Positions 5,990 through 13,029 of a stretch of 64,000 nucleotides of DNA are shown here, piece by piece (positions within the stretch are counted from its first letter, which is position 1; every line of letters begins with the position of its first letter). The translations under genes and the position numbers were made by a program. The stretch lies in NCBI GenBank assembly GCA_041499805.1, contig JBGQKZ010000010.1, positions 28,224 through 92,223 of the forward strand. Reading direction: 5' to 3'. Under the pieces are notes generated by a model. It made no database searches. It was not told the DNA's origin and saw only the letters and a list, made by a program, of their open reading frames with translations. The DNA comes from Gemmataceae bacterium (GTDB lineage: Bacteria; Planctomycetota; Planctomycetia; Gemmatales; Gemmataceae).

Positions 5990-6325
5990 TCAGGGTCTCT
6001 GTCCACGATTGACTCGAATACACCATCTGCCTTGAGAACGGCCGACGAGCGCCGCATGTATACGCGAAGCCAAGGAAACGGGATTCTTGGGGTCTTGTGT
6101 CGCGGTCACAATTCCGCTGTGCGCCGTCCCTTGATGATCTAAGCGCTCGTAATGACGGCGGTTGTGCGTGAGCACCGCTCGATTGAGCGCGTGGGCGCGG
6201 GCCAAAATGTCAGGGTCGGGCGCAGCCCGTCGGTTGTCTTCTTGAGCCGTCAGCACATCATGACCAAGCCGGCGCAGTTCCGCGACTGCCCCAAGGGGGA
6301 AATCCTCATCGGCGTAGAGCAGCAT
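5990..6325 (-). CDS. DUF5615 (PIN-like) toxin-family protein
   Basis: MLLYADEDFPLGAVAELRRLGHDVLTAQED...ILARAHALNRAVLTHNRRHY matches the DUF5615 pattern. Sits immediately downstream of a DUF433 gene. Confidence 0.7.
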   Translation of the reverse strand: MLLYADEDFPLGAVAELRRLGHDVLTAQEDNRRAAPDPDILARAHALNRAVLTHNRRHYERLDHQGTAHSGIVTATQDPKNPVSLASRIHAALVGRSQGRWCIRVNRGQRP

Positions 6326-6331
6326 CCGGGA

Positions 6332-6652
6332 TCACTCCGCAATTCCGCCTTCCCCTTTTTCGTTCTCCCGAATGACGCCGTCGATCTCGGCTGCGTGATC
6401 CGCGGCATATCCCCACGCGGCGTCGAGATCGGCCGGAGTCAAGGAAGGATAATCGCGCAGCAGGTCCGCATCCAATCCACCCAGGCGGCGATAGTTGACG
6501 AGCACCCAAACCGGAATCCTGCTGTCCCGAATGCAGGCATCCCCGCCGCAGCGATCGGGTCTCTTGGAAATGCGGACGGCGCTCGTGTGTGCGATCCCAC
6601 TGCCGAAGGCACGCAATCGCGTCGGTGGATCGTAAACGGCTGCCTGGCTCAT
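6332..6652 (-). CDS. DUF433 antitoxin-family protein
   Basis: Internal ATG at 6652. CGGDACIRDSRIPVWVLVNYRRLGGLDADLLRDYPSLTPADLDAAWGYAADH matches DUF433 (GKPCIRGTRIPV...YP.LT..DI..AL.Y). The start overlaps the stop of the upstream gene as ATGA. Confidence 0.7.
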   Translation of the reverse strand: MSQAAVYDPPTRLRAFGSGIAHTSAVRISKRPDRCGGDACIRDSRIPVWVLVNYRRLGGLDADLLRDYPSLTPADLDAAWGYAADHAAEIDGVIRENEKGEGGIAE

Positions 6653-8080: not shown

Positions 8081-9700
8081 CTACACCTCCACCGCCTCCA
8101 CTTCCCGCACAAACCGCTCCTCGTCCGCGCTCAGGAAGGCGGCCACGACGTTGAACACTGCGTCGCTGAAGCCGCCGATGTTCAGGATGTCCGAGCGGTC
8201 GGGGGCCTGCGTGGTGGCATAGGGCTGGAGGTCGATGCACACCAGCTTCGGGGCCGCCGCGCCGCGCGGGTGCAGGCGGGCCTGCTGGACGACGAACGAC
8301 TGCCAGGCGGTCATGACGCCGGTCGAGCCGTGGCGGCCGACGCCGATCCAGCTTTCCATGTCGCTGACCAGGATGCAGCCGGCGAACGGACGCTTGCCGT
8401 GGCGCGCGACGGCTTCCTTCAGCGGCAGCGCGCAGTCGGTGCCGCCGCCGCCGTACTGGGCCAGGCGCGTGGCCAGGCTCAGGATGGTGTCGTGCGGATC
8501 GACCGTGACCCGGTGCGTCTTGTCGTCGAACGGAATCAGGACGCTGTCCGGGTTGCGGCGGAGGATGGCGGCGGCGAATAGGGCCGCCACGTCCACGCAG
8601 CGGACTCGGCTGGTGGCGCCGCGGCCGCGGCGGCCGGTGATCGGCGACTGCATCGAGCCCGACACGTCCAGGCCGATGACGACGGGCTCCGGCAGCTCCG
8701 GCACGTTGCCGCACGCGATCTCCGCCGCCTGAGCGAGGGCGGCCTTGATCTTCTGCGGCAGATTCGTGTCCGCGTTCAGGTACGCCGCCAGGTACTGGTA
8801 CGGGAACTGGCGCGACGCGCGGATTTCGTCCGCATCGGCGATCTTCGCGGCGACGAAATCGATCACGTCGGCATCCGCGAAGGCGTCGTGGCGCAGAAGC
8901 GTGTTCAGATTCATGCGCAGCGCCTGCGGACCCATCTGGCGGGCGATGGCCTTCCAGACGAGCGGGCCGCGCGCAGCATCGGCGAGCAGGTCCCAGCGGA
9001 AGCGGGCGTTCTCCAGAATCTGCACCTGCTCCTCCGGCGTGGCGGCCTTGCGGTAGGTGTCGAGGGCTCGCACTTCCTCCGGCAGGTCGTCCGCCGTCGC
9101 GGGCGACCACTTCTCAAGCGGGCGGTCCGTCAGCCAGCCGAAGAGGGCGCGGCGGGCGTCGTCCTTCGGCGTCGGGCGAGCCAGGCGAAGCACGTCGCGC
9201 AGGCTCGGGTCGTTGCCGATCGACGCGGCAAGCAGTCGGCTGACGCTCGCTTCATTCAGCCAGCGCTGGCAGGCACGCTGCGGCGCGTACGACAGGCTCT
9301 TGCGGCCGAACTGGCCCGAGCGGAGCATCTGGAAGAACGTGCGCAGGAACCGGCCGTTATCGACCACGCGGTCGAACACTCGACGGAACAGGGCACGGTC
9401 ACGCTTCGACAGGAGCAGCAACAGTGCCGCCGGCATGTCCTTCATGTAGGCGCGCTCGCGGCTGTAGAGAGCCAGCTTCGCCAGGAAGACATTGTCGTCC
9501 ACCGCGTTCGCCAGCGCGAGCAGCGTGGCGAGCTGGTTTTCCGCGTGCGCGTAGAAAATGCCGTTGAAGCAACCGGTGGCGGCGAGCTGGGCCAGCGCGT
9601 GCTTCGGCGGCAGGCGGTAGGCCGGAGCGCCCTCTTCATTGCGCGCCTCGGCGCGCGGCAGCAGGCTCGCCAGACTTGCAAACAGACCCTTGTTCGCCAT
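8081..9700 (-). CDS. rsr: Ro60-related protein Rsr (TROVE domain + C-terminal vWA/MIDAS)
   Basis: 539 aa. [14 protein letters not shown] resembles the TROVE GTEGGTYYA motif. The C-terminus has a vWA MIDAS motif ([11 protein letters not shown]). ATG at 9700 is preceded by a GAGGAG RBS. The overlapping 344-aa minus ORF in another frame is an artefact. Confidence 0.85.
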
Positions 9701-9728
9701 CGGCTTCTCCTCATGCAGAAAAAAAGGT

Positions 9729-9826
9729 CCGACGAAAGTTGGGCAGAGCGGTCGTACCTCGCGGTACGTGGAGGCTCCCGCCTCCTGGCCACGGTACAGG
9801 TGGATGTACTCCGCACCGGCAGTCGG
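9729..9826 (-). ncRNA. Y-RNA-like unit I (YrlB-like). Shares the terminal Ro-binding-type stem but has three small GNRA-capped hairpins instead of a tRNA-like module
   Basis: Minus strand: 5' CGACUGCCGGUGCGGAGUACAUC ... 3' CUCUGCCCAACUUUCGUCGG, then a U7 tract and the rsr RBS. Middle hairpins are GGAGGC-GGGA-GCCUCC and GUACC-GCGA-GGUAC. Coordinates approximate. Confidence 0.45.
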
Positions 9827-9842
9827 ACCGAAAAAGCAAAAA

Positions 9843-9938
9843 CCCGACGAAGTTTGGGCAGAGTCGCGACCCCTCCGAAAAGGAGCCGGTCAGGATTCGA
9901 ACCTGAAGGTACCGATGTACTCCGCACCGGCAGTCGGG
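9843..9938 (-). ncRNA. Y-RNA-like unit II (T-arm only)
   Basis: Same 5'/3' arms (CCCGACUGCCGGUGCGGAG / CUCUGCCCAAACUUCGUCGGG). Perfect T-arm UCAGG-UUCGAAU-CCUGA, then a CUCC-UUUUC-GGAG hairpin. Coordinates approximate. Confidence 0.45.
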
Positions 9939-9953
9939 TGTGTTTTCAAGCGA

Positions 9954-10075
9954 CCGACGAAGATTTGTTCAGAGTCGTTCCGGTGCTCTGCCATTGAGCT
10001 ACGGCGTCTTGCGACGCTGGCGGGACTCGAACCCACAACCTCCGAATTAAGATGTACTCCAAAACGGCAGTCGGT
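9954..10075 (-). ncRNA. Y-RNA-like unit III with a full permuted tRNA mimic (YrlA-like)
   Basis: 5' arm ACCGACUGCCGUUUUGGAGUACAUC. T-arm GUGGG-UUCGAGU-CCCGC. Acceptor-like stem closed by a GNRA loop (GCGUC-GCAA-GACGC). D-arm GCUC-AAUGGCA-GAGC. 3' arm CUCUGAACAAAUCUUCGUCGG. Coordinates approximate. Confidence 0.5.
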
Positions 10076-10092
10076 CTTGTTTCACAAGGCCG

Positions 10093-10208
10093 GAGCGACG
10101 AAGGATTGGTCAGACGCATTGCTCTACCCATTGAGCTACGCGCACCGCGAAAAAAGGGTGCGCGGCCGGACTCGAACCGGCAACCGATGTACTCCAACCG
10201 GCAGTCGC
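10093..10208 (-). ncRNA. Y-RNA-like unit IV with a full permuted tRNA mimic (YrlA-like)
   Basis: 5' arm CGACUGCCGGUUGGAGUACAUC. T-arm GCCGG-UUCGAGU-CCGGC. An 8-bp acceptor-like stem CGCGCACC/GGUGCGCG closed by CUUUUUUCGC. D-arm GCUC-AAUGGGUA-GAGC. 3' arm CUGACCAAUCCUUCGUCG. Coordinates approximate. Confidence 0.5.
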
Positions 10209-10289
10209 TGCGGCCAGGCTGCTTGGTGAGATAGACAGGGCGGCCGCGGGATGGGTTCGCGGTTCGTCGTCGAACTTGATTCCAACCAT

Positions 10290-10940
10290 TCAAGTCATCG
10301 ACGGGTCCGCGCACGCCGCCACCCGCTGACAAGCCTGCCCATAGAACTTGATCTGGTCCCACGCAAAGCAACCCAGGAATATCGCCGCCCAAGCGCCGCC
10401 GAACAGGCCGAGGTTGGTTGCACTCGGTAAGGAGGGCGTTTCCTTGAAGATGCCGGCCGCGAGGAACGAGAGCAGGGCGGTCGCCAAAAAGGAGCCGAAG
10501 CGAACGAATCGGCTGGCGAGCAACACCACGGGGATCTCGAAGTGATAGGGGTCGCGGCCGTTGTCGAAGTTAAGGGTTACGGGAAGGGAGCGCACCTCGC
10601 TGCGAATCAGGTTTAGCCAGTCGTGCGACAAGGGCGAGCCAATATCGAACGAGAGAGCGCGGCGGTTGCCGTCCGGTTCATCCGGCGCTTGTGTATGGAC
10701 CACGCTGCGCGGCGCGACCAGGCGCAAGCGCCAACCGGCGGCCGTTTGCTCTTGCGTGACGACGCGCAGGCGGTAGGTTTTGCCGCGTCGGAGCTTGTAG
10801 CCGACCAGAGTCGGGGCGATGCGGCGGTCGTGTTCGTCACGCAATTCGTAGCTGAGCGGCGCCCGCGGCTGGAGGCAGGGCGGAATGACGCAACGCTCGC
10901 GCGGCGGCGGGACGGCACTTGTCGATAGGGTCAGGACCAT
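10290..10940 (-). CDS. Hypothetical protein with two C-terminal TM helices, last gene of the STAND-NTPase cassette
   Basis: Internal ATG at 10940, 5 nt after the upstream stop. C-terminal hydrophobic stretches VVLLASRFVRFGSFLATALLSFLAAGIF and LGLFGGAWAAIFLGCFAW. Confidence 0.45.
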   Translation of the reverse strand: MVLTLSTSAVPPPRERCVIPPCLQPRAPLSYELRDEHDRRIAPTLVGYKLRRGKTYRLRVVTQEQTAAGWRLRLVAPRSVVHTQAPDEPDGNRRALSFDIGSPLSHDWLNLIRSEVRSLPVTLNFDNGRDPYHFEIPVVLLASRFVRFGSFLATALLSFLAAGIFKETPSLPSATNLGLFGGAWAAIFLGCFAWDQIKFYGQACQRVAACADPSMT

Positions 10941-10944
10941 GAGT

Positions 10945-13029
10945 TCAGCTCTCCGGAGCAATGAAGGCCAGGTGCGGCGCGGTCTGTTCGGCCACAAAGT
11001 GATTGAGGATCGACGCGGAAGCGTGCGGCGTTTCGGTGGCGATTTGGTTCCACCACTTCGGCAGCGCGAGCCAGGGTGCTAAGTCAACGGGCGCGACGGC
11101 ACGCAACTGCACGCGCGGACCTGTGCCGTTCGCGGCGAACTGGTCCCACATGGCCCTCGTTCCCGCCGGCAGGTGTTCGTGATACGGCGGCGTGAGGTCA
11201 CTGCCGCGCGGCCACAGGAGGATGAGCAGGTCGGCAGGGCGGACCGGCCCGGCCATCATTTTTAGTTTCGTTTCCAGGTCGCGCGGCATGGCCCGTTTCT
11301 CGCCGAGGAGCAGGCCGATGCCGAGTGCCCGCGTTGTCGTTCCCGCGCGCCACTGGCACTTCGTGATCTGGCCGTACGTGGGATGGGCGCCGGCTTGCGG
11401 ATCGTTCGCGGCGGCGACCGGCATGCCGGCGCCGTTGGCGACGCCGTCCGCGATGAGGCACTGCAACCACTTCAAGAGTCCGGCGTGCAACTCATCGGCC
11501 TGCCCACCGCAGCCGGCTTCAAGGATTTGCCGGGCCTTGCGGAGTTCCCGTTGCCAGCACGCTTCGAGCGGCTCGATCAACATGCCTTCGGCGACGGCGG
11601 CGCTGGGCTGCGCGGCGGGCGCCAACGCCACGCGATTGCCGAGCCGCTCGTCGTAGCGATCGCGCAGCGCTTGTAATGCCTGGCGCAACGGCGGTTCCTC
11701 ACCCGGCGAACGAACGATCCGTTCGAGGTCCTCTTCGCGGAGCGGAAAGATCGGCGGCGCGTCGAAAGAGTCGGCTTCAAAGTACTCGCGGAGCAAGGGG
11801 CGCATGCGCGACGCGACGATTTTCTGCAACTGTGCGGCCGTGACGTTCGGCATCTGCATGCGGCTCAGGCTGCCGTGGCCCGGCACGCGAATGACGCCTT
11901 GCTGAATGCGTTGCAAGGCGTAGCTGCTGATCATCGACTTTTCCAACTGCTGCCAGTGGCCGATCTCCGCGAACAGCAGAAAGGGAATGCCGCGGTGCGA
12001 GTCGAGCACGTCGGCGAGACCCTTGAAGAAGGGATGGCACAGCTCTTTGTCCGGCGGGTCGCCGAGCAACGATTCGAGAGCGTCGAACAAAAAGATGATC
12101 GGCAAGCGGGCCAGGAGACACAGCTCAAGCAACGCCTGAAAAAGCTCATCGACCAGCGTTTCGCGGGCCGGCTGGATCTTTGCATCGACTTCCGTGTAGC
12201 CGTCGAGGAGAAAATCGTACACAGTTTCGCGCGGCGCGCCGAACGCCAGGCCGACGAGGCGGTCGTAGAGGCCGCGGCGGATTTGGCCTGCGATGGTATG
12301 GCTCGGTTCACTGCGGATCTGTTGCAAGGCCAGCGTCCGCAGGGGTTGGAAATCCACTTCGTTCTCCGCGCAAACCTCACGTAGCGTTCGGTCGCCGGCC
12401 TGTTCCAGGTCGTGGATGAGCCGACGACGACGTTCGGCGCGAAGACGGACGCCGACGCCGAAGAAGTAGCGCCAGAAGCGGCCCGCGGCGGCTTCCCGAG
12501 CGAGCCAGTCGATCTCCGTCATGCCGCGGAGAGCTTGCACGAGCGCCTGCCGCGTGAACGCGTCGGCGAGCAGCTCCAGCGTGCCGGGCGCGCGCTCGTC
12601 CGCCTCGCTTTGCAGATGGCGCACGACCTGATGGAGCAGATACTCCATAAAAGGACGCTGTGGCTCGTAAATTACGGGAGTGACCGCGAGGCACGGCCGG
12701 CCATCGCCGGCGCGGCGTTGCAACGCATGGACCATGTGCGTTTTGCCGATGCCGCGTTTCCCTTCGACGACCACCACGCCGGACCGGGGCAAGTCGCTGT
12801 CCCATTCCAGCCCGGGTAGCCGGTAGCGCTCCACCACGGCGTTCAAGGCGCGGGCGATATCTTGGTGAATGTCGGGCACATGAACGCGCGCGAAGTCGGC
12901 CTCCGGCTTGCGCGCGGCGACGAACACGTCGAACGGGTTGTCCTTCCCTCGCAGAAAACTCATCAGGCCGGCATGCTCCGTCGCAGGAGCCGGCGCCGGG
13001 GTTTCAAGCGTGAGCAATGAGTTGGGCAT
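10945..13029 (-). CDS. STAND/AAA_16-like P-loop NTPase (~690 aa)
   Basis: Walker A VVVVEGKRGIGKTHMVHAL (GxGKT, AAA_16-like) and a Walker-B candidate PIIFLFDALE, with a long helical C-terminal region. Start uncertain: ATG 13029 overlaps the upstream gene by 26 nt; the alternative ATG at 12963 (MSFLRGKDNPF) leaves a gap. Confidence 0.65.
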   Translation of the reverse strand: MPNSLLTLETPAPAPATEHAGLMSFLRGKDNPFDVFVAARKPEADFARVHVPDIHQDIARALNAVVERYRLPGLEWDSDLPRSGVVVVEGKRGIGKTHMVHALQRRAGDGRPCLAVTPVIYEPQRPFMEYLLHQVVRHLQSEADERAPGTLELLADAFTRQALVQALRGMTEIDWLAREAAAGRFWRYFFGVGVRLRAERRRRLIHDLEQAGDRTLREVCAENEVDFQPLRTLALQQIRSEPSHTIAGQIRRGLYDRLVGLAFGAPRETVYDFLLDGYTEVDAKIQPARETLVDELFQALLELCLLARLPIIFLFDALESLLGDPPDKELCHPFFKGLADVLDSHRGIPFLLFAEIGHWQQLEKSMISSYALQRIQQGVIRVPGHGSLSRMQMPNVTAAQLQKIVASRMRPLLREYFEADSFDAPPIFPLREEDLERIVRSPGEEPPLRQALQALRDRYDERLGNRVALAPAAQPSAAVAEGMLIEPLEACWQRELRKARQILEAGCGGQADELHAGLLKWLQCLIADGVANGAGMPVAAANDPQAGAHPTYGQITKCQWRAGTTTRALGIGLLLGEKRAMPRDLETKLKMMAGPVRPADLLILLWPRGSDLTPPYHEHLPAGTRAMWDQFAANGTGPRVQLRAVAPVDLAPWLALPKWWNQIATETPHASASILNHFVAEQTAPHLAFIAPES

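Follow-up and report, generated by a model that had tools for sequence, protein, structure and literature searches.

In the 64,000 nucleotides (nt) of a Gemmataceae bacterium analysed here (contig JBGQKZ010000010.1 of assembly GCA_041499805.1, positions 28,224 to 92,223; hereafter the window, with positions counted from its first letter), four similar units lie in tandem directly upstream of rsr, the gene of a Ro60 orthologue. The question raised by this locus is what these units are: small RNAs that serve Rsr, parts of the leader of the rsr mRNA, remnants of tRNA genes or copies of a repeat element. A first-pass annotation of the window had taken them for four Y-RNA-like units co-directional with rsr. 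The present analysis suggests that the array very probably consists of four non-coding Y RNA genes which are polycistronic and serve the downstream Rsr. This is read from sequence comparison, by which the units are homologous to YrlA, would be expected to work like YrlA and YrlB and form a multi-class Y RNA array which is real and conserved. The features of the locus are listed below; covariance model R1 and alignments A3 to A5 are described in a later section.

10092..10211, minus strand: unit IV, Y RNA with compact permuted-tRNA module (Rfam YrlA, model R1)
9951..10077, minus strand: unit III, YrlA-type Y RNA with full permuted-tRNA module (Rfam YrlA, model R1, alignment A3)
9841..9940, minus strand: unit II, Y RNA with acceptor-T minihelix (Rfam YrlA, model R1, alignment A5)
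9726..9829, minus strand: unit I, rsr-proximal Y RNA without tRNA-like part (model R1 via terminal arms only, alignment A4)
9701..9725, minus strand: junction of unit I and rsr, with a U7 run (9719-9725) and the Shine-Dalgarno (SD) sequence GAGGAG (9707-9712), then the ATG at 9700
8081..9700, minus strand: rsr, 539-amino acid Ro60 orthologue with TROVE ring and vWA/MIDAS (Pfam, PDB alignment)
9803-9825, 9914-9936, 10051-10073 and 10186-10207, minus strand: copies of the 5' motif CGACTGCCG-N{3,4}-GGAGTACATC (pattern scan)

A terminal module shared by four units

The 5' motif CGACUGCCG-N3/4-GGAGUACAUC was found in four exact copies in the window, all on the minus strand and none elsewhere on either strand, where dinucleotide shuffles of the window gave an expectation of 0.00 matches. 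It is followed after 60-100 nt by a 3' arm, CUCUG..CAA..CUUCGUCG, which is common to all four units (alignment A2, repeat search). The units occupy 9726-10211 on the strand of rsr, 25-511 nt upstream of its ATG, and are separated by A/U-rich spacers of 15-20 nt; no open reading frame (ORF) was placed on the array by gene callers. The motif count, and a scan with model R1 that returned exactly these units, bore out the earlier reading of four Y-RNA-like units upstream of and co-directional with rsr. The gap to the ATG had been given as 28 nt and is 25 nt from the end of the unit I stem.

Each of the four units has its termini paired with one another in the minimum-free-energy fold, and the single-sequence fold of unit I gave a z-score of -3.7. 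The shared module has a distal helix, NNNCGAC/GUCGNNN, which is 7-8 bp in each unit (in unit I, GGUCCGAC/GUCGGACC) and not 4-6 bp as first described. An asymmetric internal loop follows, with UGCC on the 5' side and CAAnCUUC on the 3' side, and then a proximal helix of 7-8 bp, GGNNNGGAG/CUCUGNCC, with UACAU after it. The 5' strand of the module is almost invariant, and its CCGAC core appears to be the counterpart of the GNCGAA / GGUCCGA Ro60-contact motif in known Y RNAs. The 5' end of unit I, GGUCCGAC, contains the vertebrate Ro-contact sequence GGUCCGA itself.

Tests against known RNA families

The Rfam model of YrlA (RF02553) has a gathering score of 69 bits, and matches to it in the window were seen in E-value mode only; at curated thresholds, Rfam reported nothing in the 64 kb. 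The scores were 63.6 bits for unit IV (E 4.5e-14), 49.2 bits for unit III (E 6.5e-10) and 26.2 bits for unit II (E 0.003), and no match was obtained for unit I. Y-RNA model hits without a canonical tRNA had been predicted beforehand. Units IV, III and II matched YrlA and no tRNA was called; all matches were sub-threshold and unit I had none. Seventeen related planctomycete loci were likewise searched with YrlA at its gathering threshold and none gave a match, only tRNAs being reported. The published motif GNCGAAN0-1G occurs in the units as the variant NCGACUG, with C replacing the second A, and is aligned to the equivalent part of the Rfam model. All units lie within about 4 kb of the Ro60 orthologue on the same strand, as the criteria of Chen et al. 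(2014) require. The metazoan Y_RNA family (RF00019) gave no match up to E = 10 in 9600-10400.

Canonical tRNA architecture was not found, since the acceptor-like stems are closed by loops and ARAGORN called 0 genes, here or anywhere in the window. A single Rfam tRNA match at 9882-10008 on the minus strand (24.9 bits, threshold 29) was considered as a real tRNA and rejected; it is a chimera, with a D-arm that comes from unit III, a T-arm that comes from unit II and an insert of 64 nt. Such a chimeric match from two adjacent permuted mimics could mislead callers of tRNA pseudogenes.

The four units one by one

In both unit IV and unit III, the T-arm comes first, then a closed acceptor-like stem-loop and then the D-arm, which is the permuted 5'-to-3' order required of YrlA by Chen et al. 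(2014). In unit IV, the T-arm is at 10165-10181, the acceptor-like stem-loop, of 8 bp, at 10139-10164 and the D-arm at 10121-10136, with no anticodon-stem or extra hairpin; the tertiary positions A15:U48 and U8:A14 are present. Its proximal helix, GGUUGGA/UCUGACC, is in the same register as in the other units. An alternative pairing, GGUUGG/CCAAUC, on which the first-pass annotation had based a shifted register, is possible on paper and was dropped in favour of the register shared across the family. Unit IV scored 89.8 bits with R1, and its best cross-genome matches were the short units with T-arm and D-arm of related loci L006, L009, L016 and L041. Unit III consists of a short anticodon-like stem, a T-arm (10020-10036), a GCAA-capped acceptor-like stem (10002-10019) and a D-arm (9985-9999); it scored 116.4 bits and resembles a widespread class of long units with both arms. 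The description of these two units as permuted tRNA mimics of YrlA type proved correct, given the YrlA matches, the order of the arms and the covariation of the Levitt pair reported below.

Unit II has a T-arm at 9890-9906 and, directly after it, a 9-bp acceptor-like hairpin at 9867-9888. It had been credited with the T-arm alone; only the D-arm is missing. It is outside the training set of R1 and scored 48.2 bits (E 5.6e-10), and its counterparts elsewhere are T-only units in the second position from rsr. Unit I contains hairpins at 9789-9803, 9770-9785 (loop GGGA) and 9753-9768 (loop GCGA), that is, two GNRA-capped hairpins and one 4-bp hairpin with a 7-nt loop in place of the three GNRA mini-hairpins first proposed. 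It is likewise outside the training set and was matched by R1 through its terminal arms only (35.9 bits, E 6.4e-7). Its best matches were the rsr-proximal units of about 93 nt in loci L052, L060, L021, L010 and L078; units of this size sit beside rsr in Thermoguttaceae and Pirellulales loci. In summary of the outer modules, those of IV and III are an L-shaped tRNA mimic with its ends moved to the anticodon-stem position, that of II is an acceptor-T minihelix and that of I is a set of hairpins.

With regard to the acceptor-like stems, many class III units in relatives (for example L035, 3531-3537) have the sequence N-ACU after the 3' strand of the stem (A3 columns 73-77), where unit III of the window has its GCAA tetraloop. 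The encoded C of Mycobacterium smegmatis YrlA is known to be extended by CA after RNase P cleavage. By analogy, it could be speculated that the 8-bp acceptor-like stem of unit IV, which rests on a 5-bp T stem, is a substrate for RNase P and CCA addition as in M. smegmatis YrlA.

Related loci and covariation

For comparison, one genome per species was scanned with an Rsr alignment, which gave 347 confirmed relatives, from which 80 loci were kept, all of them Planctomycetota with the exception of stray bins. With one mismatch allowed per half, the 5' motif was found 348 times on the rsr strand of these loci and 12 times on the other. Counted by motif, the loci hold 2-8 units: 17 loci have two, 15 have three, 17 have four, 10 have five, 9 have six, 2 have seven and 2 have eight. 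The covariance model R1 was built from 49 related units having both T-arm and D-arm. In a scan of both strands of the window it found exactly the four units, and in the 80 related loci it gave 332 matches at E<=1e-3, with up to 7-9 per locus; among the matches listed, 300 of 300 were on the rsr strand and upstream of rsr. The overall size of the array in the clade is 2-9 units upstream of rsr on the same strand, so the four units of the window are mid-range and not an expansion peculiar to this genome. Among cultured planctomycetes, arrays are present in Stieleria marina K23_9 (L073, about 9 units), Stieleria magnilauensis TBK1r (L062), Rhodopirellula maiorica SM1 (L064) and Pirellulaceae SH467 (L076).

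Three class alignments were examined: A3 for units with T-arm and D-arm (49 sequences), A4 for class I (18 rsr-proximal units) and A5 for class II (14 units). The structure of A3 was specified by hand (distal, proximal, small hairpin, 3-bp anticodon-like, T, acceptor-like and D stems) and replaced an RNAalifold prediction for this class, which had missed the proximal helix and contained a dubious 3-bp hairpin. In A3, 95.2% of cells are paired as against 83.7% in shuffled controls, and 24 of the 36 pairs change on both sides; none of 500 shuffles, which take no account of phylogeny, reached any of the measures, and pairing fell to 35-49% when the 3' partners were slid by 1-3 columns. The D stem is invariant and hence uninformative. 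A4, with unit I included, has 93% of cells paired and changes on both sides in 17 of 24 pairs, and A5, with unit II included, 91.2% and 20 of 28 (0/500 shuffles in both). Class I keeps a 7-bp hairpin with a GGGA cap and a second hairpin with a GNNA cap, and class II a T-arm followed directly by a 6-9-bp hairpin without a D-arm. The compensatory change which had been seen in the terminal helices was supported by these both-side changes, the proposed helices showing covariation in all three classes. Among 354 units with defined ends, the bases that flank GAC...GUC formed a mean of 4.08 extra pairs within a unit as against 1.89 between units.

The tertiary contacts of the tRNA-like part are also maintained. 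The Levitt pair 15:48 is A:U in 36 and G:C in 13 of the 49 sequences without exception, U8:A14 is invariant (49/49), the T-loop is UUCGANU and the D-loop retains GG. Compensation at the Levitt pair of YrlA has been reported likewise (Chen et al., 2014; PMC4201824).

Compared with one another, the four window units have unrelated inner modules (normalised alignment score at most 0.18); higher scores (0.34-0.52) were obtained with units that hold the corresponding array position elsewhere. The order of IV-type, III-type and II-type units before rsr is also that of the two closest relatives with long contigs, whose Rsr is about 80% identical. As the window units resemble their positional counterparts more than each other, sequence comparison indicates that they are old, separately conserved paralogues and neither recent repeats nor decayed tRNAs.

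It should also be noted that the arrays at L035 2977-3330, L091 4046-4436 and L090 4195-4578 start with two short units and one long unit. The short ones (about 57-75 nt) consist of the stem module only, some with AAC/GUU for GAC/GUC, and the long one is of about 170-180 nt; these leading classes are without counterpart in the window. Several planctomycete genomes have two separate rsr loci, each with a Y RNA array of its own (L008/L024, L021/L041, L017/L050 and L020/L028).

The rsr gene and its junction with unit I

The assignment of the adjacent gene as a Ro60 orthologue was upheld. Its product is full-length and matched Pfam TROVE (E 1.4e-8, 34.8 bits, cut-off 23) and vWA_Ro60 (E 1.7e-13, 51.3 bits, cut-off 27.7), both above cut-off. 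The alignment with Deinococcus radiodurans Rsr (PDB 2NVO, E 2.5e-17) runs from end to end, spanning residues 14-524, and takes in the MIDAS motif DVSGSM. Xenopus laevis Ro60 (1YVP, E 4.3e-8) and a phage Ro60 (9L5Y, E 4.7e-16) were both more distant than 2NVO. The NCBIfam Rsr equivalog model gave 76 bits against a cut-off of 900, which places the protein in a divergent subfamily. More than 5,700 Rsr homologues were found, the closest of which are 70-80% identical and almost all from Planctomycetota (Gemmataceae, Isosphaeraceae, Thermoguttaceae and Pirellulales). The vWA domain had been remarked on as unusual; it is a standard part of Ro60, for which Pfam has a dedicated vWA family, and D. radiodurans Rsr aligns through DVSGSM.

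The absence of rtcB and rtcA from the vicinity had also been thought unusual. The absence itself stands, as none of the genes called in the 10 kb to the left and right of rsr belongs to an RtcB or RTC family. Neither the M. smegmatis nor the D. radiodurans rsr locus is known to carry rtcBA. Furthermore, RtcR does not regulate YrlA in M. smegmatis, and the mapped loci of both species have their Y RNAs upstream of rsr (PMC4201824). On both grounds the absence of rtcBA is ordinary.

The 25 nt between the stem of unit I and the ATG hold only the U-run and the SD sequence, which leaves no room for an rsr promoter and argues for co-transcription with the array. In the related loci, the stem ends a median of 22 nt before the ATG (interquartile range 20-24.5) and an SD-like sequence is present in 72 of 78. 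A U-run, counted from four U upwards, comes after 40 of 55 last units (73%) as against 58 of 296 other units (20%). This suggests, as far as the letters can tell, that stem and U-run at the rsr junction are a leaky or partial terminator or a 3'-end signal. A second U-run in the window, U5-GC-U5, follows the closing stem of unit II (9831-9842, minus strand). In 12 loci that have no tRNA genes, the 150 nt before the first unit were compared and no common promoter-like motif was detected. The spacer motif UGAAACA was considered as a processing signal and discarded, being present in only 34 of 179 spacers.

tRNA arrays and gene context

The surroundings of the array were analysed for tRNA genes in the 57 loci whose upstream sequence is 3 kb or longer, 4 kb being examined. 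In 44 of them, same-strand tRNA genes lie directly upstream of the Y array. There are at least 5 such genes in 28 loci, at least 10 in 18 and at least 20 in 8 (within the 4 kb), with a maximum of 33, and the last tRNA before the array is tRNA-Cys in 28 loci. In total, 492 tRNA genes were upstream on the same strand, 1 on the opposite strand and 1 downstream. The nearest relatives of the window have 20-29 tRNA genes, then 6-7 units, then rsr. The window belongs to the minority (13/57) without a tRNA array, has no tRNA gene in its 64 kb and also lacks the two or three short leading units of its closest relatives. The earlier proposal of an undescribed expansion of the Ro system did not hold for this genome, which is atypical in the opposite way; it may hold at the level of the clade. 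Examples of the arrays, all on the strand of rsr, are:

L031, 1-3830: tRNA array
L035, 1-2975: tRNA array
L090, 2359-4191: tRNA array
L091, 1552-4042: tRNA array
L054, L056 and L070: further tRNA arrays

These arrays (5 to >33 genes) usually end in ...Trp-Thr-Arg-Arg-Arg-Cys, and many of their genes score low with Rfam (31-61 bits). Gene callers put ORFs over parts of the L090 and L091 arrays.

Of the 17 window proteins that flank rsr, none recurs next to rsr in the 80 loci, save two in L012 and one in three loci, so that the conserved cassette is the RNA array plus rsr. The AAA_16/STAND ATPase, DUF4058, DUF6941 and toxin-antitoxin genes were considered as parts of the system and discarded, as they are not conserved beside rsr. 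The window contains two toxin-antitoxin-like pairs, Xre-MbcA/ParS with RES and DUF433 with DUF5615, and, upstream of the array, a 694-amino acid AAA_16/NACHT-like ATPase (1901-2815, 5990-6652 and 10945-13029). A minus-strand hairpin, GUUCG-ACGA-CGAAC (10262-10275), lies 15 nt past the stop of an upstream 216-amino acid ORF and about 50 nt before unit IV, with no U-run after it.

Ro60 homologues of 37-62% identity are also encoded by six viral contigs (24-275 kb), three of which carry 20-35 tRNA genes with R1 matches interspersed. In the viral loci L084, L087 and L089 (112-275 kb), the Ro60 homologues are 38-41% identical and YrlA-like matches lie downstream of the Ro60 gene. An ARAGORN call of a transfer-messenger RNA in L089 overlaps tRNA genes and is probably spurious.

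Alternative explanations

Several points weigh against a reading of the units as Y RNA genes. All four are below the gathering score of YrlA (at most 63.6 against 69 bits), and of the motif GNCGAA(N)G they have only the variant NCGACUG. The R1 scores of units III and IV follow by construction, as both units belonged to the training alignment, and the shuffle controls ignore phylogeny. The fold z-scores of units II-IV are unremarkable (-1.2 to -1.9), simple consensus scans of 9500-10500 found neither a sigma-70-like promoter nor a canonical terminator, and the upstream tRNA array, which is the presumed source of transcription in relatives, is missing from the window. The lack of a detectable separate rsr promoter also suits an explanation in which the units act mainly in cis, as a 5' leader of the rsr mRNA whose Rsr-binding sites autoregulate termination or translation, and are not stable trans-acting RNAs. 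The junction agrees with this as well, for the stem of unit I is directly followed by U7, SD and ATG within 25 nt in total, a geometry kept in related loci. For such a leader, however, the last unit alone would suffice, yet 2-9 units of distinct classes are kept, including full tRNA mimics with intact tertiary pairs; in M. smegmatis and D. radiodurans, release of the upstream units yields stable RNAs bound by Rsr (PMC4201824); and in phage-size viral contigs homologous units lie downstream of the Ro60 gene. A mainly cis-acting role is thus considered unlikely, and it should be noted that cis-leader and trans-RNA roles are not mutually exclusive.

The position of the array directly after a long tRNA array in most relatives, and the sub-threshold tRNA match of 24.9 bits at 9882-10008, could be taken to mean that the units are decayed tRNA genes, the functionless, eroded tail of a degenerate tRNA cluster such as has been reported in Planctomycetes. 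That match is chimeric, though, and ARAGORN called no unit. Loops close the acceptor-like stems, which covary all the same, and the units do not have the open acceptor ends of canonical tRNA genes. The RNA ends are at the anticodon-stem position and carry a 23-nt non-tRNA motif which is identical in the four units, and classes I and II, which lack tRNA parts, are kept with compensatory changes across orders. Decay is very improbable on these grounds and is already largely refuted. There is least to be said for copies of a repetitive or mobile element, of the repetitive extragenic palindromic (REP) or miniature inverted-repeat transposable element (MITE) type, or for a chance repeat. The presence, within 500 bp, of four direct repeats whose blocks of 23 nt and 8 nt are nearly identical would fit one, but the copies occur only upstream of rsr on its strand, with none elsewhere in 64 kb and a strand bias of 348 to 12 motif matches in related loci, and the interiors of the units are unrelated while substitutions preserve pairing; this origin is scarcely credible.

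Comparison with known Y RNA systems

YrlA of Salmonella Typhimurium and M. smegmatis (RF02553; PMC4201824) is the closest known system. It shares with the window units the position next to rsr on the same strand, the stem of 5' and 3' ends with a conserved motif on its 5' strand, the permuted T-arm, closed acceptor-like stem and D-arm and the covarying Levitt pair 15:48; units IV and III match it best. The window units differ in their sub-gathering scores, in CGAC for CGAA and in the lack of an RtcR/rtcBA context. Where one YrlA is reported per locus, the window has two YrlA-type classes, the compact IV and III with its anticodon-like stem, and planctomycete arrays have further classes and 4-9 units. 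Units II and I take the role of the second, non- or partly tRNA-like Y RNA that is known as YrlB in S. Typhimurium and M. smegmatis and Yrn2 in D. radiodurans. They are unlike these in the multi-hairpin junction with conserved GNRA loops and the acceptor-T minihelix, and no sequence homology is detectable. A T-arm is present in M. smegmatis YrlB, and unit I of the window separates the tRNA-like units from rsr. Both YrlA and YrlB are encoded upstream of rsr in M. smegmatis, where a single precursor is processed to give the two RNAs and Rsr binds them (PMC4201824).

In the D. radiodurans locus, too, rsr is preceded on its own strand by several small RNAs, namely Yrn1, Yrn2 and RNAs a, b and d (PMC4201824). 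Yrn1 and Yrn2 are polycistronic with a tRNA, the RNAs of the locus being co-transcribed with tRNA-Asp, and some have T-arms (PMC4201824). Yrn1, in contrast to the window units, has the opposite arm order and a stem nearer the metazoan type, and RNAs a, b and d have no shared Ro-binding stem, whereas every unit of the window has the same terminal module. In Thermus phage phiLo, Yrl1 and Yrl2 (PMC12135203) are directly upstream of the Ro60 gene and have a 5'-3' stem and a CGAA-type motif; this locus differs from the window in its phage source, in having two units and not four and in its distantly related protein (9L5Y).

In humans, the Y RNA genes are clustered in the genome. According to PMC4030889, hY1, hY3, hY4 and hY5 are, like the window units, four paralogues with a shared Ro60-binding stem and a differing loop or effector region. 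The human genes are separate RNA polymerase III genes without a tRNA-like domain, and the Rfam Y_RNA model had no match to the window array at E<=10.

Long tRNA arrays form the other point of comparison, with Y array and rsr as the 3' end in 44 of 57 related loci and no tRNA gene in the window. Long tRNA arrays are known (PMC8421152; Tran et al., 2016, PMC4758250), including in Planctomycetes (PMC8421152), as are 'degenerate tRNA gene clusters with partially degraded tRNAs' (PMC4807772). Ro60, TROVE and Y RNAs are not mentioned in PMC8421152 or in PMC4807772. Two Y RNAs per locus have been described in S. Typhimurium, M. smegmatis and phage phiLo (PMC4201824, PMC12135203, bioRxiv 10.1101/312249), and two plus three other small RNAs in D. 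radiodurans (PMC4201824). No report of more than two Y RNAs per rsr locus was found in the literature, nor any on planctomycete Y RNAs or their link to tRNA arrays, in a search that did not extend to the supplementary species list of Chen et al. (2014), which may already include single planctomycete YrlA candidates. The present layout is standard across Planctomycetota, usually at the tail of a long tRNA array, and is missed by current RNA annotation.

Proposed model

It is suspected that the four RNAs and rsr are transcribed together as one precursor, given the short A/U-rich spacers and the lack of room for promoters. This precursor would be cut within the spacers to yield RNAs of about 100-125 nt, the units being released from the rsr-containing transcript as in M. 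smegmatis. Judging from precedents, Rsr would bind every one of the RNAs at the common stem module, above all at the invariant 5' strand. By analogy with Yrn1 and PNPase in D. radiodurans, the differing outer modules could tether or gate Rsr toward different partners. The distal stem of unit I with its U-run may act as a partial terminator which couples rsr expression to Y RNA folding or Rsr occupancy; Rsr-dependent autoregulation by this element is speculative.

A wider proposal is put forward more tentatively, as possible rather than probable: a Ro60 cassette of the form [long tRNA array]-[4-9 Y RNAs of anciently diverged classes]-rsr, in which the Ro ribonucleoprotein (RNP) is coupled to an accessory tRNA set and has class-specific partners. 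The genomic linkage is seen in Planctomycetota and in some phage-size viral contigs, while the functional coupling and the class-specific partners are conjecture. If the proposal is true, the system could, for example, serve quality control, protection or decoy roles during tRNA-damaging stress or attack, and each class (full mimic, compact mimic, minihelix, GNRA-hairpin module and minimal stem) would bring its own partner to Rsr. In that case the window would be a reduced form of the cassette, in which the four rsr-proximal classes are kept.

Significance

The function of the tRNA-like domain in bacterial Y RNAs has yet to be established (PMC4201824; bioRxiv 10.1101/312249). The arrays described here offer a natural deletion series behind one Ro-binding stem in one putative operon (full mimic, compact mimic, minihelix and no tRNA part), and as this series is conserved across the phylum, module-specific partners can be sought directly. 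With regard to annotation, no unit of the window or of the 17 related loci tested passed the curated Rfam threshold, and the 'degenerate tRNA clusters' of planctomycetes may include structured Y RNAs under selection. The physical linkage of Ro60 genes with long tRNA arrays, seen in bacteria as well as in phage-size contigs, points to a tRNA-centred role of the bacterial Ro RNP.

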